From a phage: a stretch of DNA of 64,000 nt. The position numbers and the translations under genes were made by a program. Below, in pieces: positions 1-63,231 of the stretch. The notes beneath the pieces are model-generated. The model was not told the origin of the DNA. It saw only the letters and a program-made list of their open reading frames with translations, and did not search any database. Location of the stretch: the sequence record PX915677.1; one strand, given 5' to 3'. Numbering within the stretch: the stretch's first letter is position 1; the number at the start of each line of letters is the position of its first letter.

Positions 1-522
1 GTTGTTGACAAGACCAAGAATGGTCCTGCTGACCCGGATACTGGTGCAGTAACTGTTAAAGTTGCACAGAATGCTTCTAACCCGACCACTAACATTGGTT
101 TTGATGAAGCTGATATCTTTGATATGACCCTGCAACTGTATACCGCTGGTTCTGAAGCAGATATCATCATGATTAACCCAGCTCATGCTAAGATCTTCGC
201 TGGTCTGCAAGAAAATACTCAGGGTTCACGTAAGCGTATCTTTGAGAACACCAAGCAGTTCATCTACGAAGTTAACAGCATCACTGACCCGCTGGGCCAG
301 AGCTACAAAATCATCGTTAACCGTTGGATGCCTACCGATGCAGTTTACTTCTTCCGTAGCGCTGACTGGACTCAGATGGTTCTGCGTGCTCCGAAACGTA
401 CTGAACTGGCTAAAGACGGTTCTTACGAGAAGTGGATGATTGAAATGGAAGTTGGTCTGCGTCACCGCAACCCGTATGCTTCCGGCGTTCTGTTCACTGC
501 TGCGGGAAAGGTGGCGGCGTAA
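1..522 (+). CDS. major capsid protein, C-terminal part (5' partial)
   Basis: Frame-1 ORF open from base 1 to TAA 520-522 (...FTAAGKVAA*); lies directly upstream of tail genes, followed by a strong terminator and a -1 frameshift Ig-like extension as in T7 10A/10B-type capsid genes. Confidence 0.6.
   Translation, partial: VVDKTKNGPADPDTGAVTVKVAQNASNPTTNIGFDEADIFDMTLQLYTAGSEADIIMINPAHAKIFAGLQENTQGSRKRIFENTKQFIYEVNSITDPLGQSYKIIVNRWMPTDAVYFFRSADWTQMVLRAPKRTELAKDGSYEKWMIEMEVGLRHRNPYASGVLFTAAGKVAA
504..510 (+). other. -1 programmed ribosomal frameshift slippery heptamer GGGAAAG
   Basis: G_GGA_AAG in the capsid zero frame just before the capsid stop; -1 frame is open 444-1046; same heptamer class as the lambda G/GT shift site. 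Confidence 0.5.
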
Positions 523-1046
523 CAGTAGACAGTGTGACTGTTAGCCCTGCGTCTTTAGCAAGTCTAGAGACAGGGGCTACTCGGCAGTTCACTGCAAGCG
601 CGGAGAAAAGTGATGGTTCTACCGAAACAACTGGCTTTACTTGGTCAGTGACAGGAGGTGGTTCTATCACTCAGTCGGGTTTGTATACTGCTCCGAGTGC
701 GTCTCAATCCACTGATGTATCCATTACTGCAACTTTAGAAGGTGTTTCTGGTACAGCAACCATTTCTGAAATTGTTGCTCCTGCTCCTACTATTGTGAGT
801 CGTGGGCCAATTACAGGTAAAGTAGGTGGTACTACCACTAACTTCAACACCATGTTTACTGTAACTAATTCTATTGCTGATGATTACACACTTGTTGTAA
901 CTCCCGCAGAAGCTGGTACAATAAGCGCTAATAATTCGTTAAAATTAGATGCTGCTGCAAGTGGCGAAGTTACTGTTCAAGCTAGTTTGACAGCTGACCC
1001 GTCCATCAATGCAACATGCACTTTTACTGGTGTAACACCTGCTTAA
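510..1046 (+). CDS. Ig-like (Big_2-type) domain extension fused to capsid protein by -1 frameshift
   Basis: Post-slip reading GGGVTVDSVTVSPASLASLETGATRQFTASAEK...; Ig-like T/S/V-rich pattern; the listed GTG start at 534 has no Shine-Dalgarno. Confidence 0.5.
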   Translation, partial: GGGVTVDSVTVSPASLASLETGATRQFTASAEKSDGSTETTGFTWSVTGGGSITQSGLYTAPSASQSTDVSITATLEGVSGTATISEIVAPAPTIVSRGPITGKVGGTTTNFNTMFTVTNSIADDYTLVVTPAEAGTISANNSLKLDAAASGEVTVQASLTADPSINATCTFTGVTPA

Positions 1047-1105: not shown

Positions 1106-1114
1106 TAATGTATA
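1106..1114 (+). promoter_or_regulatory. candidate phage-specific promoter element TAATGTATA
   Basis: 9-mer recurs 34-59 nt upstream of gene starts on the coding strand (1106+, 18161+, 29392-, 35956-). Confidence 0.4.
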
Positions 1115-2408: not shown

Positions 2409-4685
2409 ATGATCGTTTATAATAACCAAGCACCTGATGCAGTGAATAACGTTGGGCAGTTTGGTGCTACTGAAGGCTCTATCGGAGCTTACAAGCAAGC
2501 AGCAGAATATGCAGCTGACTCCAAATATTGGGCACTGCTAGCAGAATCTAAGTTTGGTACAATTGATGATTTAACCGCTGAAGTAGAACGTCTATATCAA
2601 CAGGGTGTTCTGATGAAGCAGGATATTGAAGATCTTAAGCAGGATTTTAAGGATCAAGATGCTCGTTTGATGACTCTGATTGCCCAAACCAACGCAGCAG
2701 TATCGGATGCTAATAATGCCGTTGCTCTCATTAACCAAAAACTTATTGAAGTCCAGAATCAGCTTGATGTTCTGTTAGGAATGTCTGTTGATGTAACAAC
2801 TCTCCCTCCGGGAACTCCGGCTACTGGCTCTTTTAATCCTAACACTGGTGTAATCTCTTTAGGTATTCCAGAAGGTGATCCCGGAAAAGATGGTTCTGTT
2901 AAGGATTTGGATACAGCACCTACAGGTGTTCCAGAGCTAGGTGATTTAGGTTTCTATGTTGACAAAGATGACAATACCGTCCACAAAACTACTCTAGATA
3001 ACATTGCTAACTTAATCCCATCTGTCCGTTCTGTCTCTATTAACGGCGGTCCAGCTCTTGATGGAGAGGTTGCTCTAACGCTTAACAAAGAGACGGTAGG
3101 TTTAGGAAATGTTCTGAACGTTGCTCAGTACAGTCGTCAAGAGATTAATGACAAGTTTGATAAAACCACCAAGACATATCAATCTAAAGCAGAAGCTGAT
3201 GCTGACGCTCAATATCGTCAAGTTGGAGAGAAAGTCTTAGTTTGGGAAGCTACTAAGTATGAGTTCTACACTGTTGCTGCTAACAAAACATTAACTCCTG
3301 TTAAAACTGAAGGTAGAATTCTTACTGTTAATTCCCGTTCTCCAGACTCCAGTGGTAATATTGACATTACCATTCCAACAGGAAACCCTTCTCTATATCT
3401 TGGTGAGATGGTAATGTTCCCTTATGACCCAACAAAGAATATCTCCTATCCGGGCGTTCTTCCAGCCGATGGTCGTCTAGTGTCTAAAGAGTCTGCTTCA
3501 GATTTAGGCCCATCCCTTGTCAGTGGACAACTTCCTGTTGTTTCTGAAACTGAATGGCAAGCAGGGGCTAAACAATACTTCTCTTGGGGTAAATTGGCAG
3601 ATGGTATTACCGATGCAGATTCTACTAATTTTATCAACATTCGACTTCCTGATTGGACTGGAGGGGAGGCAATAAGAGCACCAGATTCTGATAAAGACTC
3701 TCAGTACAATGGGTCTGTACAGGCTCAGAAACCTTATGTTGTTACTGTAAATAACCAAGCTCCTGATGAGATTACTGGTAATGTGAACATCTCCAGATCA
3801 ATTTTAGGTGCTGCCGCTTCTGGTACAAACTCTGATATAACATCCCTCACGGGACTCACTACAGCACTGTCTGTCACACAAGGAGGCACTGGAGCTAAAA
3901 ATGCTGCTAGTGCTCGTTCTAATCTAGGGTTGGGAAGTGTTTCTACTCTGGATAATGTACCTATTGCTAATGGTGGGACAGGGGCTGGAGATGCTGCTGG
4001 TGCAAGGTTCAATATTGGAGCGCTAAGTAACACCCCAGCAAATTCAGGCGTAGGTGGTACTGGGGATCGTGTCCAACATGCCTCCGGGAACGGCCTGTTT
4101 ACTTTAGACTTGTTTAACTGCTACTGGTATATGCAGCCAGAGGATACTAACTTCTGGATTGCCCACGGTGTGTCATATGCAGGGTCTGGTGGCGAAGCCT
4201 CACAATACGGTCGCATATCTTACGCAATAAAGATTGCAGACGGAACAATAAAATATGTCCATTGTCTTACAAACAAAAACACCACTGTTGATGTAAACGG
4301 ATTTATCAAAGCGGCATCTCCGGTAGTTCATATTTACTCCGACGGTCGATATGAGACGAACGAGGAATCTGAGGGGGTTAATGTCATTCGGCAAGGTGTT
4401 GGTGAGTACTTGATTACCGGTTGCCTTGGCTTAAACGCAGATGCAAAATGGGGAGGCATTGACGGCGGCTTTGAAATCCCTACTGACCGCAACAAACAAC
4501 CTAGGGTTTGGCTGGACTATGAGATTAAAGAAGATGGTTCTATTTTAGTTAAAACCTATCACAGAACCCATCCAACCTCTCCGGTTTTTGCTAGAAATGA
4601 GATAGAAGGTTTTTCTGACGGTGATCCTATTGATATCCCGAGTGATGCTTTTATTTCAGTTCGTGTTGAAATGCCTTCTGAGTAA
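2409..4685 (+). CDS. tail fiber protein
   Basis: N-terminal coiled coil; repeated GGTGA..AAxARxNLGLG-type motifs (TQGGTGAKNAASARSNLGLGSV, ANGGTGAGDAAGARFNIGA) typical of phage tail fibers. Confidence 0.6.
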   Translation: MIVYNNQAPDAVNNVGQFGATEGSIGAYKQAAEYAADSKYWALLAESKFGTIDDLTAEVERLYQQGVLMKQDIEDLKQDFKDQDARLMTLIAQTNAAVSDANNAVALINQKLIEVQNQLDVLLGMSVDVTTLPPGTPATGSFNPNTGVISLGIPEGDPGKDGSVKDLDTAPTGVPELGDLGFYVDKDDNTVHKTTLDNIANLIPSVRSVSINGGPALDGEVALTLNKETVGLGNVLNVAQYSRQEINDKFDKTTKTYQSKAEADADAQYRQVGEKVLVWEATKYEFYTVAANKTLTPVKTEGRILTVNSRSPDSSGNIDITIPTGNPSLYLGEMVMFPYDPTKNISYPGVLPADGRLVSKESASDLGPSLVSGQLPVVSETEWQAGAKQYFSWGKLADGITDADSTNFINIRLPDWTGGEAIRAPDSDKDSQYNGSVQAQKPYVVTVNNQAPDEITGNVNISRSILGAAASGTNSDITSLTGLTTALSVTQGGTGAKNAASARSNLGLGSVSTLDNVPIANGGTGAGDAAGARFNIGALSNTPANSGVGGTGDRVQHASGNGLFTLDLFNCYWYMQPEDTNFWIAHGVSYAGSGGEASQYGRISYAIKIADGTIKYVHCLTNKNTTVDVNGFIKAASPVVHIYSDGRYETNEESEGVNVIRQGVGEYLITGCLGLNADAKWGGIDGGFEIPTDRNKQPRVWLDYEIKEDGSILVKTYHRTHPTSPVFARNEIEGFSDGDPIDIPSDAFISVRVEMPSE

Positions 4686-4694
4686 TTTAACAAT

Positions 4695-4713
4695 GCTCCC
4701 TTCGGGGGGCTTT
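4695..4713 (+). terminator. terminator-like hairpin
   Basis: gctccc-ttcg-gggggc stem with UUCG loop followed by TTT. Confidence 0.4.
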
Positions 4714-4725
4714 AAGGAGATTTAA

Positions 4726-6924
4726 ATGTCTAGAGAATTAATGCCCAAATCTGGTATAATGATGCCTCATGTGGTTGTAACCAGAGACGCGGCTGTTGTT
4801 GGGGTTTCTACTGTAGATGGACAGGCTGGAGCTATTAACCTCACCGGAAAATATTTACAGAAAACCGACGCAGCTGCTACCTATCAAACTAAAACAGAGG
4901 GTGCATCTAAAGATTTTGTGCTGGATTCGATTCAACCTATTATGTCTGGTGCGCTGTTCCGAGAAGACCCTTGGGTTGTTAATGATACCCCATTCCGTTC
5001 TACTGGAGCTAATGGTGTAGAATCAGTTGATATGATGAAAGTTACTACTGATAACTCAATCAAGATTGGTAGTTATGCCTCTTCAGTTCAAGGTGTAGAG
5101 ATTCATTCTGCTGGTCGTCTTCAGGTTGTTGACCAGAATGACTCTGGGGTAGAAACTAAGTATCCAGTTTATTCTAAACGTTACCGTCCTGAGATTGAGG
5201 ATTTGCCTTTTGCTGCAATTGGTTCTTATGTTAAAGACTCTAAAGGTCGTACGGTAGGTGTTACTCGTACAGGGATTAACTCTGATATCAAACAGCTCAC
5301 ACAGAAAGTTACTTTCACTCAACCAGTAACTGTCCCTGATGCAGTTGGTGATCATGATGCGGTTACTTTGAGACAGCTTCGAAACAGTGGTGGTGGCTCT
5401 GGTGGTCCTACGATGAGCGGTATCTCTAACTTTGGTATTGGTGATTTCCATTTACGTGACAGTCGAGCTTTTATTCCAGCTTTTGAGGTAACGTCAGACG
5501 GTCAGCTTCTTAATCGTTCAGAGTACCCAGATCTCTGGGCTTATGCACAGCTGTTATCCCCTATCTCAGATTCTGAATGGCTTAGTGATGCCCAAAAACG
5601 TGGACAGTACTCTACTGGTGATGGTTCTACTACTTTCCGCGTTCCAGACCGCAACGGGGTTCAGGTCGGTTCTATTAGGGAGCTATTTGGTCGCGGTGAT
5701 GGTGGTACATCATCCAACGATGGTGTTATCTATGATTCTGCTGCACCTAATATCAAAGGTAAGGTCGCTGGTGTATCAGCCGGGACTTATGCAGGGATAT
5801 TCGGGACGTCTGTGCAAGATTCATTCTATACGGATAACAGTTTGTATCCGGCTGGTGGAGGGGACACTATACCTCCGGGGTCCGGTGCAGTTGATGGACG
5901 TAATAATACTCTAGTCTTCGACGCAAGCCAGTCCAACCCAGTTTATGGTCGTTATAGTATCTCTGACAACATTATACCGAGAAACTTTGTGGGGGTTTGG
6001 ACTATTCGTGCTCATGGTGGATTTGTTGCTGCTAATACTTCTTGGTCTGTTATTAATAGTGACACCACACGACCTTCCAACGGAACGAAAGTTTCTAGTG
6101 GGTCAGTTGTCTCTGAGTATAAAATCGGTTCAGAAGTAGAAGCTTCTACTACTCTCAAAACTGATGCCTACATCAACGGAGCTTACTATGGAATCATTGA
6201 CGTCTACAATAAAACTAAAGGAGTTACCAAGCAGTTAGCTTTCGACGATTCTGGTACACTGAATTCTGATAGGTATGTTTCTAGATTTGGCACTTTGATG
6301 TCTTGGAGTGAAACAGGAGCTAGGAAAGGAACATTCTCCATGGACAACCAAGGGCTAGGGTCTAACTTCTCCTTCAATTCCATACTAAGTGCTTCTCAAT
6401 CATCTAGTGGGGGATACAAGACCACCACTCATGTTGGCATGATTCACAACGACGCCGGAACTTTTGCCGATTCTTGCTGGCACGTTGCAGGTGATGAAGA
6501 CAACAAATACGGTTGCCGTCTAACACTTCGACCAAACAGGAATGAGATTTTATATTATACTTGGCAACCCGGCTCTACTGGAACATACACTCTTGCTCTG
6601 AATCCCGTGTCAGATGAAAGATTAAAACATGATATCCAAGATATTTCCCCTGAGAAAGCTATCAAAGCTATTAAAGGTTTGGATTTCAAATCATTTGTGT
6701 ATAACAATGATGAGCAAGGAAGAACTCGTCGTGGTATTATTGCACAGCAAGCAGAAAAGGTAGAACCTCTTTATGTTAAGACTCGTAGGTTCCACGACAA
6801 TGATGGTGTAGAGCAAGAACAGAAAGAGCTAGACTCAGCTCCTATGCTCCTTGATACTATGCAGGTTGTTCAAGACCTTCTGAAGCGTATTGAAGTTCTA
6901 GAAGCAAAACTAGCAGAGAGGTAA
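4726..6924 (+). CDS. tail fiber/tailspike with C-terminal intramolecular chaperone (peptidase S74-like) domain
   Basis: C-terminus ...NPVSDERLKHDIQDISPEKAIKAIKGLDFKSFVYNND...GIIAQQ... matches the autoproteolytic chaperone domain of phage fibers and endosialidases; SD aaggag. Confidence 0.65.
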   Translation: MSRELMPKSGIMMPHVVVTRDAAVVGVSTVDGQAGAINLTGKYLQKTDAAATYQTKTEGASKDFVLDSIQPIMSGALFREDPWVVNDTPFRSTGANGVESVDMMKVTTDNSIKIGSYASSVQGVEIHSAGRLQVVDQNDSGVETKYPVYSKRYRPEIEDLPFAAIGSYVKDSKGRTVGVTRTGINSDIKQLTQKVTFTQPVTVPDAVGDHDAVTLRQLRNSGGGSGGPTMSGISNFGIGDFHLRDSRAFIPAFEVTSDGQLLNRSEYPDLWAYAQLLSPISDSEWLSDAQKRGQYSTGDGSTTFRVPDRNGVQVGSIRELFGRGDGGTSSNDGVIYDSAAPNIKGKVAGVSAGTYAGIFGTSVQDSFYTDNSLYPAGGGDTIPPGSGAVDGRNNTLVFDASQSNPVYGRYSISDNIIPRNFVGVWTIRAHGGFVAANTSWSVINSDTTRPSNGTKVSSGSVVSEYKIGSEVEASTTLKTDAYINGAYYGIIDVYNKTKGVTKQLAFDDSGTLNSDRYVSRFGTLMSWSETGARKGTFSMDNQGLGSNFSFNSILSASQSSSGGYKTTTHVGMIHNDAGTFADSCWHVAGDEDNKYGCRLTLRPNRNEILYYTWQPGSTGTYTLALNPVSDERLKHDIQDISPEKAIKAIKGLDFKSFVYNNDEQGRTRRGIIAQQAEKVEPLYVKTRRFHDNDGVEQEQKELDSAPMLLDTMQVVQDLLKRIEVLEAKLAER

Positions 6925-14443: not shown

Positions 14444-15496
14444 ATGTCTTTATTTGGAAAATCAGCTTCTAGCAAAACCACAGTGGCCCCTTCCTCTCAG
14501 GTTGATGCCCTGCTGAAGCAGATTGTTGCTAATGCTCAGAATATGCAGAACAACGATCCGGGATTCATCTCCCAACAACTGGCTGGGTTTAATGGCAACC
14601 AACAGGGTGCTCTGAACAACTTAGCAGCTTCTACTACTCAGAAGAAACTAGCTGATATGTATACACCACGTACACAGCAAGGGTTGGACCAATTAAACTC
14701 TCTTGCACAGCAGTATCAGAATATTGTCAATGGTGGTGGTCTAACTGCTGATGGTGTTAATAACTTCAGTAAAGGACTAAACAGCTCAGCTCTTGCTCAA
14801 GCGACTAGTAAGGCAGCTTCCAATGTATCTCTCGGAAATGGTTCTGATTCAGGTTCTCTCCGTAGAGCTGCTGCTCAAGGTGCTGCTCTGAACAGTGCTA
14901 ATACAAACTTAGCTCGTACTATCAGTGGCAAGAATATGGGAATCAGTGCTCTTCAACAAGACCAAAACTTCCAGAGGGGGTTACTTGGTGCTCAGTCAGG
15001 ATTGGCTGGACAGAATCTCAATCTTGGTGCTCAAGGTGTTCAGGCAACTCAACAAGCTATCCAGAATCAACTCATGGCTGGTAATCTACAACAGCAACAA
15101 GCCCAAGCTCAAGCTGATATTAATTGGCAGAACGCTATTGGCTCTCAACAGTATGGGTGGAATCAGCTTAACAACCAACTTAATGTATTAAATAGTGTAA
15201 GCCCAATGGCTGGGTACACGATTAAGAATGCTGCTCCGGGGGTTAATACTGGACAACAGCTCCTAGGTGCTGGTATCACTGGATTAGGTATTGCAGGTCG
15301 TATGGGTGCTTTCTCTCCTAATCAACAGACTCAGAATGCTTGGAGTTCCTATAACAACTCAGGTGGGCAATCTGGAATGGCTGGTCCTATGATTGGTGGT
15401 TCTAATCTTTCTCAACAGAAAGGTCAGTCTAACTGGTTATCCACAGCAGGTAGTAATATCTTAGGTGGTGTCTTAGGGGCATTTGGAGCAAACTAA
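14444..15496 (+). CDS. Gln/Asn/Gly-rich internal virion (ejection) protein, paralog A
   Basis: 350 aa low-complexity Q/N-rich with C-terminal Gly-zipper hydrophobic segment; shares FNxNQxxALNNLA with 15509..16477. Confidence 0.4.
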   Translation: MSLFGKSASSKTTVAPSSQVDALLKQIVANAQNMQNNDPGFISQQLAGFNGNQQGALNNLAASTTQKKLADMYTPRTQQGLDQLNSLAQQYQNIVNGGGLTADGVNNFSKGLNSSALAQATSKAASNVSLGNGSDSGSLRRAAAQGAALNSANTNLARTISGKNMGISALQQDQNFQRGLLGAQSGLAGQNLNLGAQGVQATQQAIQNQLMAGNLQQQQAQAQADINWQNAIGSQQYGWNQLNNQLNVLNSVSPMAGYTIKNAAPGVNTGQQLLGAGITGLGIAGRMGAFSPNQQTQNAWSSYNNSGGQSGMAGPMIGGSNLSQQKGQSNWLSTAGSNILGGVLGAFGAN

Positions 15497-15508
15497 AGGA
15501 GATTTGAT

Positions 15509-16477
15509 ATGGGACTTTTCGGAGGCGGGGGTAGTAAAACTACTTCCCAAATGATTCGCCCTGAATACATTCAACAGTATATTGACCAGCTTAACCAACA
15601 GATTGGTAATACTAGTTCAGGGGATTATGTTTATCGTGACAGTGTAGGGTTTAATAACAATCAGACAGAGGCACTTAACAACCTAGCACAATCTGGCGCT
15701 CTAGGTACTCTCTCACAGCAGTATATGGATGCAGCAGGTCAAGGCTTGGGTTATCTAGATAATGCCTATAAAGGTTATCAGAGCCTCTCTGGACAAGGTG
15801 GGATTACTGGAGAGCAGATTGGTGCTCTCGCTGGTCAACTGTATGATGATGACGCTGTGCAAGCAGCCATTACAGCTAATAATGAACAGGTTCAACAGAA
15901 CTTGGCACGTAATGCTCTTCCTCAGTTGGCTCAACAGTTTGCCGGTCAACAAGGTTCAGGTGCTCGTATGGCTAAGTCTTTTGCCCAAGGTGATGCTCTG
16001 AATCAGATGCAAGGGCAAGCAACAGATATTACCAATAGTGCATATAACTCGGCTATCAGCCAAGCTGAAAGCATCCTCTCTGGTAATAGACAGAATCAGG
16101 CAGCTGCTCTCTCTGGTCTTTCTAATATTGGTTCTAACCTTTCTAACCTAGGTCAGCAGGGTGCTAATTTGTCTCAACAGCAAATAATGAATCAATGGAA
16201 TGCAGGGTTGCAGCAACAACAGCAACAACAGAATGAATATGATAATGCCTACCAGAATGCTCAGAACGCAGCTAATTGGGGATGGCAAGATATCAATAAC
16301 CAACTCGGTGCAGCAGGTGTACTTAACGGTGCTCTCGGACAAACTACAACTACTAAAACATCTGGTGGCAAAGGTGGTTTCCTTGGTGGAGCTATGAGTG
16401 GTGCAGCAGCTGGCTCTTCCTTTGGACCTTGGGGTGCATTAGCTGGGGGTGTAATCGGTGGGTTGGCTAGTACTTAA
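15509..16477 (+). CDS. Gln/Asn/Gly-rich internal virion (ejection) protein, paralog B
   Basis: 322 aa; same architecture as 14444..15496; C-terminal GGFLGGAMSGAAAGSSFGPWGALAGGVIGGLAST. Confidence 0.4.
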   Translation: MGLFGGGGSKTTSQMIRPEYIQQYIDQLNQQIGNTSSGDYVYRDSVGFNNNQTEALNNLAQSGALGTLSQQYMDAAGQGLGYLDNAYKGYQSLSGQGGITGEQIGALAGQLYDDDAVQAAITANNEQVQQNLARNALPQLAQQFAGQQGSGARMAKSFAQGDALNQMQGQATDITNSAYNSAISQAESILSGNRQNQAAALSGLSNIGSNLSNLGQQGANLSQQQIMNQWNAGLQQQQQQQNEYDNAYQNAQNAANWGWQDINNQLGAAGVLNGALGQTTTTKTSGGKGGFLGGAMSGAAAGSSFGPWGALAGGVIGGLAST

Positions 16478-16490
16478 TTAGGAGATAAAT

Positions 16491-18140
16491 ATGCAACAGA
16501 CAACTTACGCTCAGGTCAGAAGTCGTGACCCGAGAAATACTTTCTATGGTGTTAATCCGGGAGCGGCTTCGGCCTCTCCTTATATGGCTAGACCAACTCA
16601 GACAGCAGATATTTCTATGTATCAACGTCCTGCTATACCTGCTGGGCTTTCCTCTCTTGTAGGTCAAACTTCAGTAGATTATCAGAATATGTTGAATCCT
16701 GTTCAGAGTAATGGTCTTCCTTCTGATATCCCAAATGATGTACAACCTCAAGCACAACAGGCTGTAACTCTTCCTGAGTTTGAGAATCAAGAAACCATGC
16801 AAACTGCTGGACTTTCCCCTTCTTCTATTCCTCCAGAATCAGAACCTCTTCCGGTAACACCTCCTACTAAACCGTTAGAAGCTGGTCCTATGGAGTTTAC
16901 TCCTTCTCAGGTGGAACAGGCACAAGGTGTGATTAATACTCTTGCTCAAGGACAAGACGCTGGTGATGGAATGACTGCTGCTACTCGTGCTAAAGATCAG
17001 GAACGTGTTAACAACGATATCTTGCAAGTTGCGAAAGCTAAAGACCCTTCGGAAGCTTGGAACAAACTACAGAAAGAACCATTCTATCAGAACTCTAGTT
17101 TCTACACAGGTTTGATGGGTGTAGGTCTTTCCATTATGTCAGGTAAGTCTCCTATTGAAGCTTTCCAGATTGGTCAGGGAATGGCTAATCAAGATGAGAC
17201 TAAGAAGCAACTGGAAGCTAACCGTGATGCTCTGATTGAACAAGGCTTCTCTCAAGACTCGATCGCAGCTGCTATTGCTAACGGAGATCCATCTCTACTG
17301 AAGATGAGAGCTGTAGACCCTGCTCAGAAAGAAGCGCTGTATGCTGCTCGTGAAGAACGACAAAATGCTGAATGGGATAGACGTCAACAGATTCAAGAGC
17401 AAACTATGCGTGAGCGTGCTGATGAAACTCGTCGTGCCGCTGAAGAAAGGGCTAACATGAACTTTGAACGTCAGAAAGAGTTGATTGGTTATCGTGATAA
17501 GGTTAAGGCTGAACGTGCTGAACAAGCTGCTCAGAGTTTTAACTTTAACCCGAAAGAAGTTCGTCTTGCTCAGAATACAGCTGAAGGTACGGTTGCTAAG
17601 CAGTGGGCAGAGAAAGGTGGCCTGTTTAACCAGTCTAACAAAGACTTGGATTTGGCTGATAAGGCTGTTAAGGATAAAGACTATCAGACAGCTCGTTCTG
17701 CTTACATGCAGGCTATCATGAACTCCGCAAGGGCTGAAATCGGTGCTACTCGTTCTCTTACCGAAGAAGACTTGGGGCACTTTGCAGAAGACCCATCAAT
17801 CTTCGTTCGTGTTGGCAACAAGTTTGCACTGAAATCTGGATGGCGTCCTACTGATTCTGCTCTTGCTTATGCTCGTAAGCAAGCTAACGTTGGTCACACC
17901 TCTGCAATGAAAGGTGTTGCTGATGCTAAGAGAGCTACGATTGAAGCTTACATCGGTTCTGGTATGGATAAGAAGAGAGCTACTGCATTGGTTAACCGTG
18001 CAATCCCTTCTGGTGGTTTCTATGACCCTCTAGGTGTTTTCTCTGAACAAGCAGAAGAAGCAGTTGGTGGTGCAGCAACCAATCCTAAGCTTAATGGTGC
18101 TTTATCAGCTGTCGAAGACACTAGCTGGTTTACTCAATAA
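16491..18140 (+). CDS. internal virion protein (putative)
   Basis: 549-aa ORF with SD, Pro/Gln-rich N-part and charged coiled-coil centre; structural operon context. Confidence 0.4.
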   Translation: MQQTTYAQVRSRDPRNTFYGVNPGAASASPYMARPTQTADISMYQRPAIPAGLSSLVGQTSVDYQNMLNPVQSNGLPSDIPNDVQPQAQQAVTLPEFENQETMQTAGLSPSSIPPESEPLPVTPPTKPLEAGPMEFTPSQVEQAQGVINTLAQGQDAGDGMTAATRAKDQERVNNDILQVAKAKDPSEAWNKLQKEPFYQNSSFYTGLMGVGLSIMSGKSPIEAFQIGQGMANQDETKKQLEANRDALIEQGFSQDSIAAAIANGDPSLLKMRAVDPAQKEALYAAREERQNAEWDRRQQIQEQTMRERADETRRAAEERANMNFERQKELIGYRDKVKAERAEQAAQSFNFNPKEVRLAQNTAEGTVAKQWAEKGGLFNQSNKDLDLADKAVKDKDYQTARSAYMQAIMNSARAEIGATRSLTEEDLGHFAEDPSIFVRVGNKFALKSGWRPTDSALAYARKQANVGHTSAMKGVADAKRATIEAYIGSGMDKKRATALVNRAIPSGGFYDPLGVFSEQAEEAVGGAATNPKLNGALSAVEDTSWFTQ

Positions 18141-18160: not shown

Positions 18161-18169
18161 TAATGTATA
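18161..18169 (+). promoter_or_regulatory. candidate phage-specific promoter element TAATGTATA
   Basis: ctaTAATGTATAtag 39 nt upstream of ATG 18208. Confidence 0.4.
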
Positions 18170-29391: not shown

Positions 29392-29400
29392 TATACATTA
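29392..29400 (-). promoter_or_regulatory. candidate phage-specific promoter element TAATGTATA (minus strand)
   Basis: 59 nt upstream of SSB-like gene start 29332. Confidence 0.4.
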
Positions 29401-29463: not shown

Positions 29464-29472
29464 TAATGTATA
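29464..29472 (+). promoter_or_regulatory. candidate promoter element TAATGTATA (plus strand, orphan)
   Basis: Same 9-mer on the opposite strand inside the 415-bp ORF-free region 29333-29748. Confidence 0.25.
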
Positions 29473-35955: not shown

Positions 35956-35964
35956 TATACATTA
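35956..35964 (-). promoter_or_regulatory. candidate phage-specific promoter element TAATGTATA (minus strand)
   Basis: 36 nt upstream of ATG 35919. Confidence 0.4.
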
Positions 35965-58617: not shown

Positions 58618-58839
58618 TTAGTAAACTAAACCTGTAGCCTTTGCATCAGGCTGAGGGACTACTTTTGCACTAGGGCGATAGCCATCCACTGAGCCGTTCC
58701 AAAGATTGACACAGGTGATATATCCATCGTCTATGATGTCTGTTTTAATCCAGAAGTGTTTATCATGACCAAAAATACTTCCGTTTGGCAGCGTGGACAA
58801 TTCAACAGTTTTAAGTGACTGCTTAGAGTCTAGTTTCAT
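58618..58839 (-). CDS. small protein, expanded paralog family
   Basis: LKTVELSTLPNGSIFGHDKHFWIKTD...CVNLWNGSV. Confidence 0.4.
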   Translation of the reverse strand: MKLDSKQSLKTVELSTLPNGSIFGHDKHFWIKTDIIDDGYITCVNLWNGSVDGYRPSAKVVPQPDAKATGLVY

Positions 58840-58848
58840 ATAAGTTCC

Positions 58849-59046
58849 TTAATATACCAAACCATGTAAAAGAAACATCCTCTTTGTAAGCTCTGCTTTA
58901 GCTCTGTAATAAGCCTTAGAACCTAACAGGCGGCTCTTAACAAAGAACTTAATGTCATTGCTAACATCTTGTATTAAACGCTCCTGTACAGTTTCTGAGG
59001 AGTTATTAATCGAATCAATTAACACCTTTGTAGATGTGTAATTCAT
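58849..59046 (-). CDS. hypothetical small protein
   Basis: Start at MNYTSTK, 1 nt after lipoprotein stop. Confidence 0.3.
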   Translation of the reverse strand: MNYTSTKVLIDSINNSSETVQERLIQDVSNDIKFFVKSRLLGSKAYYRAKAELTKRMFLLHGLVY

Positions 59047-59047
59047 A

Positions 59048-59347
59048 TCACCACTCCTTACCGGTTGTAATCGTAGAGCCACCACACCACAATGCTGTAT
59101 CAATAACAACATTATCCGGTGTAGACTTCTCTTCGTTGATAGAAGGGTTAGCATTAGAACAGGTTGCTCCGTTCCATCGCATATCAATTTCACCAGAAGG
59201 AATCTTCTCACCCTTATGCCAGCGAGAAACACAAACACCTTCCACTGCTACTGCACACCATCCATCAGGACGGCTCTGTACGCAGCCTGTAAGGGCTATG
59301 CAGACAAGGAAGATACAGATTAAGGATATTACACCACCCCAACTCAT
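59048..59347 (-). CDS. lipoprotein (Cys-rich)
   Basis: Signal peptide ISLICIFLVCIALTGC with lipobox LTGC. Confidence 0.5.
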   Translation of the reverse strand: MSWGGVISLICIFLVCIALTGCVQSRPDGWCAVAVEGVCVSRWHKGEKIPSGEIDMRWNGATCSNANPSINEEKSTPDNVVIDTALWCGGSTITTGKEW

Positions 59348-59366
59348 AATTACCTCCTATTAGATT

Positions 59367-59400
59367 TGGTGGACTATCTGGAATCGAACCAGAAGCTCAC
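59367..59400 (-). other. tRNA-like 3' fragment (T-arm plus acceptor-CCA), degenerate
   Basis: Minus-strand ...TCTGG-TTCGATT-CCAGA-TAGTCC-ACCA; no pairing 5' acceptor strand found by eye. Confidence 0.3.
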
Positions 59401-59487
59401 TAAGAAAGTAATTCCCACTGTTATAAAAGCACTTGCCTCAACAGGGATACACTAACTCTGGTGCCGCACCCATACTAGCCCTAAATG

Positions 59488-59563
59488 TGGTGCGCCCTAC
59501 AGGACTCGAACCTGTAACCAATAGCTTAGAAGGCTACTGCTCTATCCATTGAGCTAAGAGCGC
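59488..59563 (-). tRNA. tRNA-Arg (anticodon TCT)
   Basis: Hand-folded cloverleaf: acceptor GCGCTCT/AGGGCGC, D-arm GCTC-AATGGAT-AGAGC, anticodon loop CTTCTAA, T-arm ACAGG-TTCGAGT-CCTGT, encoded CCA. Confidence 0.8.
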
Positions 59564-59571
59564 AGAATTAT

Positions 59572-59736
59572 TTAGATCATATCTCGCTTGGTGATATGAC
59601 CACATGTTTTACATCGAAGTATATAACGAGTACCTGTGTCTTCTATTTGACCAATCTCATTATATATGTGTAAACGAATTTCTTTTATTGTCTCCCAATC
59701 ATGGAGATGGAAGAAACGTTTAAACCACTTGAACAT
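59572..59736 (-). CDS. hypothetical small CxxC protein
   Basis: Internal start MFKWFKRFFHLHDWE...; ends ..RCKTCGHITKRDMI. Confidence 0.25.
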   Translation of the reverse strand: MFKWFKRFFHLHDWETIKEIRLHIYNEIGQIEDTGTRYILRCKTCGHITKRDMI

Positions 59737-59743
59737 AATAACC

Positions 59744-59995
59744 TCAAGCACAAGCAGGGAGAGTGATGATTTTATGCTTACCGTCAAACTCTCCAAACAA
59801 ACCCAAGAATGTAGGACTGTAAGTTCCAGTGCAAACAAACTCATCAAACAATGCGTTATAGCTAGGCTTAATCTTCCAAGCCCATACATAACCCATCTTA
59901 TCGATTGCAATGTAACGAGTGTTCAGAGGAACAGTCATCATCACATCGTCAACTTCGATCACTTTAGTTATTGGTGCAGCTTGAAAGTTTTTCAT
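59744..59995 (-). CDS. hypothetical protein
   Basis: 83-aa ORF. Confidence 0.35.
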   Translation of the reverse strand: MKNFQAAPITKVIEVDDVMMTVPLNTRYIAIDKMGYVWAWKIKPSYNALFDEFVCTGTYSPTFLGLFGEFDGKHKIITLPACA

Positions 59996-60225
59996 TACAT
60001 TTCCTCTAATTTAAGAGTTGCTTTATACTCTGTAACTGGAACGTGCCCAGCGAATGAAAGCTTATGGGCAGGATGTGATAAATTTACAGAAAAACCTCCC
60101 CCAATCTTCATGTAGAACTTCTTTTTGTCCCAAGATGGGCACTCATCAAGTGAGAAGATTGATCCAACGCTCAAACCTCGGAAAGTCTTTTGGTCTGTTT
60201 TAGTTGAGCCTAGAATGATATTCAT
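59995..60225 (-). CDS. small protein, expanded paralog family
   Basis: FRGLSVGSIFSLDE...FSVNLSH; ATGA coupling with upstream small ORF. Confidence 0.4.
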   Translation of the reverse strand: MNIILGSTKTDQKTFRGLSVGSIFSLDECPSWDKKKFYMKIGGGFSVNLSHPAHKLSFAGHVPVTEYKATLKLEEM

Positions 60226-62841: not shown

Positions 62842-63231
62842 TTATTCCCTAGAGCTATTATCGAACACTAAATCACCACAATACATAGGATTGGCATACC
62901 ATTTTGGCACCCCTTCGCTCTTACTCTGAAAGTAAGTCCCACTGTACAGCGGAACATAATTCTTCTTAAGGGCACGTTTAGCAAGTCGCTCGCTTTCTCC
63001 AATGGCTTGCTTAGTCATCGGATTTTTATCACGAATCAGCTTTACATAACGTTTATAAGGTTTCTCCTGTTTTAATAGTACCGGAATCCACTCAAACTGG
63101 TTCTTCTGTCTTATCACCTGTTCAGCGGTCAGTTTTCGTTGGGCCATTCTATTTATCACGGTATCCGCAACTAAAGCCTTACATGCGGTTGGCTGATTCC
63201 CTGCCTCATAATAAATAGTCAATGTCAACAT
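62842..63231 (-). CDS. SleB/CwlJ-like cell wall hydrolase domain protein
   Basis: TIYYEAGNQPTACKALVADTVINRM...EQVIRQKNQFEWI matches Hydrolase_2 (SleB) core pattern. Confidence 0.5.
   Translation of the reverse strand: MLTLTIYYEAGNQPTACKALVADTVINRMAQRKLTAEQVIRQKNQFEWIPVLLKQEKPYKRYVKLIRDKNPMTKQAIGESERLAKRALKKNYVPLYSGTYFQSKSEGVPKWYANPMYCGDLVFDNSSRE

Follow-up and report, generated by a model that had tools for sequence, protein, structure and literature searches.

What is the tRNA-like sequence that lies immediately downstream of a transfer RNA (tRNA) gene in the phage genome of sequence record PX915677.1? We analyzed a stretch of 64,000 nucleotides (nt) of this record, referred to below as the window, in which a tRNA-Arg gene with the UCU anticodon is followed on the same strand by what a sequence-only reading had described as a 34-nt fragment at 59367..59400, comprising a canonical T-arm, a 6-nt 3' acceptor strand and an ACCA end with no 5' strand to pair with, and had explained as a decayed tRNA, a non-canonical tRNA or a tRNA-derived recombination site. 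The T-arm, acceptor strand and ACCA are present in the sequence. The fragment is the 3' end of a complete gene, 115/116 nt long, for a tRNA-derived, non-decoding RNA. On balance, we think it probable, though far from assured, that this gene specifies a functional tRNA-like small RNA maintained under constraint and analogous, rather than homologous, to RNAs C and D of phage T4.

Anatomy of the tRNA-like element

The feature spans 115 to 116 nt, rather than 34 nt, because a 5' strand, GGGCUA at 59481..59476, pairs with the 3' strand UAGUCC, and the block conserved across phages starts at that very place. A second complete tRNA that would account for the fragment is thereby found in part, as the gene to which the fragment belongs is tRNA-like and complete at both ends without being a canonical tRNA. 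Positions in the element (el.) are counted from G59481 as position 1, so that element position n corresponds to window position 59482 - n. The parts of the locus are as follows.

59488..59563, minus strand: tRNA-Arg, anticodon UCU, reading AGA; canonical 76-nt cloverleaf with an encoded CCA (ARAGORN, Rfam)
59488..59492, minus strand: CACCA closing tRNA-Arg at its 3' end; with CACCA at 59367..59371, it forms the direct repeat that flanks a 122-nt indel
59483..59487, minus strand: 5-nt spacer CAUUU between the CCA of tRNA-Arg and the element (sequence, alignments)
59367..59482, minus strand: whole tRNA-like element, 116 nt with the conserved A59482, 115 nt from G59481 (conserved block, 122-nt indel)
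59476..59481, minus strand: 5' acceptor strand GGGCUA (el. 1-6), invariant, pairing with 59371..59376
directly after the 5' acceptor strand, minus strand: G7, U8 and A9 (el. 7-9), from the sequence
59459..59472, minus strand: D-like arm, with stem UGG/CCA (el. 10-12 / 21-23) and the 8-nt loop GU(G/A)CGGCA containing GG
59394..59458, minus strand: non-canonical middle domain of 65 nt (el. 24-88), in place of the 17-nt anticodon arm and variable loop
59377..59393, minus strand: T-arm UCUGG-UUCGAUU-CCAGA (el. 89-105), from the sequence
59371..59376, minus strand: 3' acceptor strand UAGUCC (el. 106-111), from the sequence, pairing with GGGCUA
59367..59370, minus strand: ACCA, that is, an A in the discriminator position and the encoded CCA (el. 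112-115), from the sequence

What the element retains is thus the top half of a tRNA: a T-arm, a D-like arm that contributes the GG of the elbow, and an acceptor helix that ends in a free ACCA. In the helix GGGCUA/UAGUCC, five of the six pairs are Watson-Crick and the remaining one, third from the helix end, is a G.U; RNAfold assigns all six positions pairing probabilities of 0.97-1.0. Both a canonical T-loop of the UUCRANY type and the D-loop GG required for the elbow are found. The T-loop string GGTTCGANTCC occurs exactly twice in the 64 kb, in tRNA-Arg and in the element, compared with 0.05 occurrences expected from shuffled sequences, so that the T-loop match is not a matter of chance. The D-like arm is used by ARAGORN models obtained at relaxed thresholds; RNAfold alone does not predict it. 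The middle domain is predicted in constrained folds to form a long irregular hairpin with the tip hairpin GAGGC-AAGU-GCUUU (tip pair probability 0.58-0.99), and holds a weak look-alike of an anticodon arm, UUAC-UUUCUUA-GUGA (el. 71-85), that would present UCU. Where another tRNA-Arg allele lies upstream, the spacer CAUUU is replaced by AUUUUAAACA.

The adjacent tRNA-Arg(UCU) is real, ordinary and already known in this phage group. The sequence-only reading had placed it at 59488..59563 on the minus strand, in agreement with ARAGORN, which calls it, as tRNA-Arg (tct), as the single tRNA in 64 kb, and with the Rfam tRNA model RF00005, which scores 72.4 bits (E 7e-14); the gene is also annotated in many related records. 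That reading had further linked the gene to the rarity of AGA in enteric hosts, and the gene does fit the heavy use of this codon by the phage: AGA makes up 22% of the arginine codons (11.9 per 1000) in those open reading frames (ORFs) of the window that encode at least 100 amino acids (aa), and 20.2% in the element-carrying phage YF01 compared with 3.6% in Escherichia coli K-12 (PMC9965538).

Near-identity of the element across three genera

In a collection of 50,697 phage records, the element was found in 30, all of them Gordonclarkvirinae of E. coli or Shigella and belonging to three genera. All 30 copies are at least 97.4% identical (range 97.4-100%), and none of the 30 GenBank records annotates the element. 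Variation, scored in 18 copies from the three genera, is confined to four sites, all of them transitions, with 112 sites fixed.

el. 15: D-like loop
el. 24: junction, equivalent to tRNA position 26
el. 48: tip tetraloop
el. 73: switch from A-U to G.U

All four allele combinations of el. 15 and el. 73 occur, and the same four sites toggle in different lineages. Background divergence was calibrated on the virion/ejection gene block, the tail-fibre genes being hypervariable and hence unsuitable. Fisher tests of flanks against the element are inflated where the flanks are non-homologous replacements; we relied on the virion block and on the homologous coding sequence (CDS) of the lipoprotein gene that follows the element. 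Compared with the window, the values are as follows.

SU10: element 0/116 changed; lipoprotein CDS 56/282 (20%); virion/ejection genes 94.8% identical
EP335: element 3/116; lipoprotein CDS 74/282 (26%); virion/ejection genes 79.3%
TH43: element 2/116; lipoprotein CDS not relied on; virion/ejection genes 78.8%
101114BS3: element 2/116; downstream gene differs; virion/ejection genes 79.3%

The limits of the conserved block are equally well defined, as it starts exactly at A59482 whichever tRNA-Arg allele lies upstream and stops at CCA whichever gene follows; in EP335, there are 7 changes in the 18 nt after CCA, compared with the 3/116 inside the element. This distribution of changes indicates purifying selection on the whole 116 nt, possibly aided by exchange between phages, and is unlike that of a drifting pseudogene. 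The notion of a decayed tRNA sits poorly with an element that is among the most conserved stretches of the region.

The element is neither a canonical tRNA nor a coding sequence

By any tool applied, the element is not a decoding tRNA, and it is not coding. ARAGORN called nothing on it in the default mode, at 95% of the threshold (-ps) or in the intron modes (-i), reporting only tRNA-Arg. Searches for transfer-messenger RNA (tmRNA) were negative as well, with no ARAGORN call in the window, 0 genes with -m -ps, and no Rfam tmRNA family at E<=10; across Rfam, RF00005 included, no family matches 59367..59482 at E<=10. For the carrier genome YF01, tRNAscan-SE and ARAGORN were reported to find one tRNA (PMC9965538). 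Models obtained below threshold (80-85%) share the same acceptor, D and T arms and disagree in the middle, yielding the mutually inconsistent anticodons Asn-GUU, Val-UAC, Ile-UAU, 'stop'-UUA and Arg-UCU. They include a 66-nt 'tRNA-Arg(tct)' built on UUAC-UUUCUUA-GUGA, which emerges only at 80% of the ARAGORN threshold, as well as a 'tRNA-Asn(gtt)' that has a long variable arm and contains an intron of 22 nt. A tRNA interrupted by one clean insertion or intron was likewise rejected, given that a single one of 1,953 internal-deletion variants was called at the ARAGORN default, and the anticodons of those just below the threshold are incompatible. The deletion scan and the discordant models together point to a tRNA-like outer scaffold, the middle of which is not an anticodon arm with a simple insertion.

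The geometry is also atypical. The acceptor has 6 pairs compared with the canonical 7, and a 7-bp register would need an A.A mismatch at 1:72 and leave the 3' end as C-CAA. The distance from the D-arm to the T-arm is 65 nt, with no canonical 5-bp anticodon stem at the standard distance, and the sole stem-loop that presents UCU has 4 bp including a G.U, U37, and a variable loop of 2-3 nt. The UCU-loop interpretation is attractive because everything else at the locus derives from tRNA-Arg(UCU), but it remains weak. As for protein coding, no minus-strand ORF of at least 30 aa covers the element, and there are stops in all three sense frames.

Several other identities were considered and rejected. 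As a promoter for the phage sigma factor gp36, TAGTGTATC in the element has two mismatches, core included, to the phiEco32-type consensus tAATGTAtA (PMC8948821), and it does not figure in the set of 18 sites that come within one mismatch of that consensus in the window. These 18 sites do not exceed chance expectation, so that only exact TAATGTATA sites are suggestive; the five such sites in the window, at 1106..1114 (+), 18161..18169 (+), 29392..29400 (-), 29464..29472 (+) and 35956..35964 (-), are likely middle/late promoters of the phage. A trans-acting antisense RNA finds no basis in the window, where the longest antisense complementarity is 11 nt, the chance level. A same-strand match of 17/18 to el. 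61-78 occurs at 62945..62928, inside a 129-aa ORF (62842..63231, minus strand), and is judged a chance match because it lies within coding sequence. Neither YrlA nor any other Rfam family gives a credible match.

The element has no match on either strand in 5,426 complete E. coli genomes (blastn, word size 11, E<=1). With no similarity to E. coli sequence, it cannot be the core of an att site, and the recombination-site option of the sequence-only reading lacks support in the attP sense, with no search made for an integrase; what that reading got right about this neighbor was the option of a non-canonical or tRNA-derived element. Kuraviruses are described as lytic. Even so, tRNA cassettes are exchanged at this locus often enough to make it a hot spot.

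Turnover of tRNA genes at the locus

The tRNA-Arg slot was compared at loci L003-L006, L010-L015 and L021-L034 in addition to the window. Phage MN03, with 99.2% virion-gene identity to the window and the same tRNA-Arg allele, lacks exactly 122 nt; its junction reads GGGCGCACCA followed directly by AATCTAATAGGAGG, and the missing 122 nt are bounded by the CACCA direct repeat of the two tRNA-type 3' ends. This exact presence or absence of 122 nt implies that the element is accessory and can come or go in one piece. The element is lacking in phiEco32 and in three relatives from IMG/VR, where the CCA of tRNA-Arg(UCU) abuts AATCAAATAGGAGG...ATG of the lipoprotein gene; across the element-less phages, the sequence abutting this CCA reads AATC(A/T)AATAGGAGG...ATG. 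In the window, it is the CCA of the element that sits at the lipoprotein junction, with tRNA-Arg one slot upstream. In 4E8 (OQ689734), a 270-nt ORF (g104c, 446..715) fills the slot between tRNA-Arg and the lipoprotein gene, which makes this position a general insertion hot spot.

The tRNA-Arg(UCU) slot itself is occupied by at least 7 unrelated alleles among close relatives, all with one anticodon: the window-type allele, those of IME267/MLP3, the TH43/Bas91/YF01-type, phiEco32, a T4-like allele beginning GTCCC, the L004/4E8 type, and TH38. From the sequences, this pattern looks like cassette exchange rather than point divergence. Genes for HNH endonucleases adjoin tRNA-Arg on its upstream side in Bas91, YF01, Bas92, Ptacy1532/1479 and TH38; the coordinates of these HNH/homing endonuclease genes are 435..866 in TH38 (L034, MT446410), 1..224 in Bas91 (L013) and 392..841 in YF01 (L025). 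They lie upstream of, or overlap, alternative tRNA-Arg alleles, in parallel with segB beside tRNA-Arg in T4. In TH38, an HNH ORF and a new tRNA-Arg have been inserted into the window-type tRNA-Arg, the old 3' half of which remains, with the breakpoint at a shared anticodon-loop string, CTTCTAAG. In HC-25922 (OQ555404) and TH42, ARAGORN can call no tRNA at the locus. Both carry an 80-nt piece (at ~525..446, minus strand, in HC-25922) that has a 7-nt acceptor, a perfect UCU anticodon arm (CCCGU-CUUCUAA-ACGGG), a long variable region and a T-arm but lacks a D-arm; it is followed by a 3' fragment of a TH43-type tRNA-Arg and then by the element. The gene downstream of the element also differs, in 101114BS3, TH42, HC-25922 and SR02. 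Overall, the tRNA-Arg slot is a clear case of tRNA gene turnover associated with homing endonucleases. Three contigs that share the tRNA-Arg 3' end (L007-L009) proved unrelated and carry no copy of the element.

Genomic context

The 1.4 kb around the locus are 100% identical to 'phage Ec3-ASingh' (PQ561398). Elsewhere, the tail-fibre block of the window (2409..6924) is 99.5% identical to PQ561398, and the virion-gene block (14444..18140) is 98.2% identical (94% coverage, 2 pieces); with less than 100% identity in these two blocks, the window may derive from a phage very closely related to Ec3-ASingh or from another assembly of the latter. The locus is 90-98% identical to that of many E. coli podophages with genomes of 75-78 kb that belong to the subfamily Gordonclarkvirinae (the phiEco32/SU10 group), in the genera Kuravirus, Suseptimavirus and Nieuwekanaalvirus.

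All ORFs neighboring the element lie on the minus strand, as does the element, in a block described for SU10 as early genes transcribed by sigma-70 (PMC4281155). No sigma-70-like promoter or intrinsic terminator was found in 58800-60200, including in or near the element. Downstream lie the following features.

59048..59358, minus strand: downstream gene including its ribosome-binding site (RBS) AGGAGG at 59358..59353, 8 nt past the CCA of the element
59048..59347, minus strand: 99-aa putative lipoprotein with lipobox LTGC, ATG at 59347

Homologs of this protein are annotated as 'putative (phage) lipoprotein' in phiEco32, SU10 and FS2B. Among phages with identical tRNA-Arg and element, the lipoprotein gene (59048..59347, minus strand) diverges by 18-26% at the DNA level, a hint that this early membrane protein evolves rapidly or is often exchanged.

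Probable origin and comparison with known systems

A covariance model built from the element finds its best non-self match in the tRNA-Gln(UUG) of Roth01, a T4-like Klebsiella phage (21.6 bits, E ~5e-4), end to end with the middle deleted, Roth01 being one example of the T4-like Klebsiella/Enterobacter phages with such a gene; ordinary tRNA-Arg genes score 13-15 bits. BLAST alone gives a borderline match to the tRNA-Gln (E 9e-3 over 31 nt). The Roth01 tRNA shares with the element an identical T-stem, a T-loop that is one base off, and an identical UAGUCCA; it ends in G-CCA, whereas the element ends in CCA without the discriminator G. The element further differs by an extra nt before U8, a different D-arm, the lack of a UUG anticodon arm, and ~48 extra nt in the middle. 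A phage tRNA gene of the tRNA-Gln type is thus the probable ancestor of the scaffold, by way of loss of a 3' base and replacement of the anticodon domain.

The closest parallel in position and architecture is found in T4, where segB (a homing endonuclease gene), tRNA-Arg(UCU), rnaD and rnaC follow each other in this order and the same orientation; the element likewise directly follows tRNA-Arg(UCU). The T4 genes, which encode the species 1 and 2 RNAs and measure 139 nt (rnaC) and 119 nt (rnaD), are similar in size to the 115-nt element, and neither they nor the element have an Rfam family of their own. The element is matched by rnaC in its canonical T-arm, in a closing stem of acceptor-like form and in the expansion of the internal arms, and rnaC is weakly tRNA-like, with 17.5 bits for the tRNA-Sec model and 12.7 bits (E 0.22), below ordinary tRNAs, for the element model. 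In contrast, rnaD has no T-arm and is not matched by the element model, and the annotated end of rnaC, ...UUUCGUA, is followed by genomic CAA, whereas in the element a 6-bp helix precedes the encoded ACCA. Neither sequence nor profile comparison detected homology between the element and rnaC or rnaD, MAFFT alignment showing identity in the T-loop only; accordingly, the element is not assigned to the rnaC/rnaD family, and the likeness is one of position and architecture. The two T4 RNAs are expressed, have no known function, and are reported as late transcripts (PMC3014915, PMC9697503); the element, known here from its sequence, lies in an early block.

The element also resembles the tRNA pseudogenes and fragments of prokaryotic and phage genomes (PMC9897764) in being tRNA-derived, escaping tRNA finders and residing in a fragment-rich locus. 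Such sequences are typically drifting 3' or 5' pieces left by integration or recombination, whereas the element keeps both ends, paired, in three genera. Like tmRNA, it retains the top half of a tRNA with the anticodon domain replaced; unlike tmRNA, it has no tag reading frame and has a normal D-like arm. It is comparable in concept to YrlA, a bacterial Y-RNA-like RNA in which a T-arm/acceptor module is fused to another domain; the YrlA match in Rfam scores 14.1 bits compared with a gathering score of 69 (E 5.9) and spans tRNA-Arg, not the element. To our knowledge, E. coli lacks the Rsr/Ro partner of YrlA.

The terminal helix of the element, GGGCUA/UAGUCC-A-CCA, equals that of the verified E. 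coli tRNA-Ala, GGGGCUA/UAGCUCC-A-CCA, minus pair 4:69. The identity of tRNA for alanyl-tRNA synthetase (AlaRS) lies in G3.U70 and A73, which suffice even in minihelices. In the element, G.U is third from the helix end and A and CCA follow, but the register hinges on the cut made by ribonuclease P (RNase P): if A59482 is left in place, the G.U becomes 4:69 instead of 3:70. Alanylation of the element is thus a speculative possibility, a single G.U at this position not being improbable by chance.

Proposed function and alternative explanations

If the element specifies a functional RNA, it would be co-transcribed with tRNA-Arg in the sigma-70 early operon and excised by RNase P at its 5' end, with the usual 3' trimming of tRNAs halting at the encoded CCA. 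The product could accumulate as a stable small RNA, as do RNAs C and D of T4, and, in the most speculative step, which draws on the constraint along the whole length and on the dispensability of the element, might work in trans by mimicking a tRNA and so occupying a tRNA-binding factor of the host; candidates include a tRNA-targeting defence nuclease, a processing or modification enzyme, and a synthetase. Such a mimic is favored over a processing signal because the whole middle is as invariant as the tRNA-like ends and because element-less phages manage with tRNA-Arg in the same position. A more specific proposal, which we regard as a long shot, is that of an early accessory tRNA mimic that is charged by AlaRS via G.U, A73 and CCA, or binds a host tRNA-binding protein, and serves as a decoy or sink in a conflict over tRNA-Arg(UCU), for example, against a tRNA-directed nuclease.

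A number of observations weigh against a functional tRNA-like RNA. The element is absent from about three-quarters of the relatives; three exact patterns did not find it in IMG/VR, and exact-pattern scans of JGI metagenomes and GTDB genomes returned only four chance 20-mers. No divergent homologs were found, which makes covariation analysis impossible. Part of the near-identity across genera could stem from gene conversion or recombination rather than selection, the locus being one that homing endonucleases visit, and the accumulation of tRNA debris there makes a relic origin of the element likely, so that its continued function is something we infer. The tRNA-like fold with the long irregular middle hairpin is compatible with all seven haplotypes (100% of cells paired); none of the haplotypes carries a compensatory change in any helix, which leaves neither this fold nor structural selection with statistical support. 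RNAfold alone prefers a rod-like fold (-37.9 compared with -31.4 kcal/mol for the tRNA-like fold), and in its ensemble the T-stem and D-stem have a probability of ~0, with CCAGA (el. 21-25) pairing with UCUGG (el. 89-93). Finally, with an acceptor of 6 pairs, or of 7 with A.A and the CCA out of register, action by RNase P and recognition of the CCA end would not be guaranteed.

As to the two folds, CCAGA is present twice in the element, at el. 21-25 (59461..59457) and el. 101-105 (59381..59377), and this duplication allows UCUGG (el. 89-93) to form either the T-stem or the rod, the latter being favored by ~6 kcal/mol; the two pairings could be a coincidence or a conformational alternative. All four natural variants are neutral in the tRNA-like fold (n=4), whereas G24A disrupts one of the G-C pairs in the rod, which is 6 kcal/mol less stable with the haplotype of EP335, a pattern that weakly favors the tRNA-like fold (n=4).

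An explanation without any function is that the element is a relic, namely, a tRNA pseudogene or chimera produced by replacement of tRNA-Arg cassettes, which hitch-hikes, is homogenized among co-infecting kuraviruses and is at most passively processed. The setting is congenial to such an origin, with tRNA debris in TH38, HC-25922 and TH42 and the turnover of unrelated tRNA-Arg alleles in the slot, and so are the T-arm and acceptor that resemble a phage tRNA-Gln stripped of its discriminator base, the 6-bp acceptor, the lack of a usable anticodon arm, and the dispensability evident from MN03 and phiEco32. However, the other fragments occur in one or two genomes each, compared with 30 records in three genera for the element, which shows 3/116 changes where the virion genes diverge by 21%; its conservation breaks off at each of the two tRNA-type ends with no gradual decay over distance; the same four sites toggle across lineages and 112 are fixed; and the acceptor strands still pair perfectly. 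We consider a relic unlikely, if still worth serious attention. Distinctly unlikely, in our estimate, is a cis-acting module for processing or stability, in which the element would serve as RNase P or RNase E 'punctuation' between tRNA-Arg and the lipoprotein mRNA or as a protective 5' end. Reported substrates of RNase P include some operon mRNAs, cut between cistrons, as well as tRNA-like precursors of phage RNAs such as P1/P7 C4. The exact position would suit such a role, given the lipoprotein RBS 8 nt past the CCA and the same junction served elsewhere by the CCA of tRNA-Arg, as would the co-orientation with the operon in the apparent absence of a promoter or terminator of its own. Yet the element-less phages do the job with tRNA-Arg alone, and no new need is apparent; punctuation would constrain the acceptor and T-arm but not the entire 64-nt middle domain, although the latter is equally invariant; and the downstream gene is not constant (101114BS3, TH42, HC-25922, SR02).

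The two remaining explanations take the element either as a true tRNA or as DNA. A genuine decoding tRNA of odd architecture, such as a tRNA-Arg(UCU) in which an extra arm separates the D arm from the anticodon arm, or an intron-containing class-II-like tRNA, would make sense of UUAC-UUUCUUA-GUGA, which would place UCU at 34-36 with U33 (80% of the ARAGORN threshold), of the UCU loop in every other tRNA-type sequence at the locus, and of an intron model that covers the whole element at 85% of the threshold. We regard this as very improbable, and it is already weakly refuted by the tRNA finders: there is no call at the default or at 95%, with or without introns, and the sub-threshold models are inconsistent; U37, the 2-3 nt variable loop, the 4-bp anticodon stem with G.U and the 6-bp acceptor all speak against it; and most carriers have a canonical tRNA-Arg(UCU) next door. 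We know of no short tRNA introns of the spliceosome or endonuclease type in E. coli or its phages. Just as implausible is a DNA-level element, such as a recognition site or landing pad for a homing endonuclease or a tRNA-derived attachment site. The HNH genes upstream of the neighboring tRNA-Arg and the CACCA direct repeat bounding the indel fit such an element, but U8, the D-loop GG, the UUCGAUU T-loop, the paired acceptor strands and ACCA only make sense as RNA, and the breakpoints that were mapped fall within tRNA-Arg or upstream of it and thus outside the element.

Implications

The element adds a new case, not described before, to the phage tRNA-like small RNAs or pseudo-tRNAs that sit beside a tRNA gene. 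Whereas the tRNA-Arg itself is routine, its neighbor is of modest importance: a gene-sized feature, missing from all 30 GenBank annotations and from published descriptions ('a single tRNA'), that is one of the most conserved stretches in a highly mosaic early region. As a functional RNA, it would be the second, independent tRNA-like small RNA found right after tRNA-Arg(UCU) in a virulent coliphage, the first being RNAs C and D of T4. This phage, with the element, and MN03, without it, form a natural isogenic-like pair, and such natural pairs, along with the kuraviruses in the BASEL collection for E. coli K-12, make expression, processing, charging and host range directly testable. Should the element prove to be a decoy, 'tRNA-Arg + tRNA-like RNA + homing endonuclease' would be a recurrent functional module of a design shared with T4 RNAs C and D, and these phages would offer a simple system for working out the role of the T4 RNAs.

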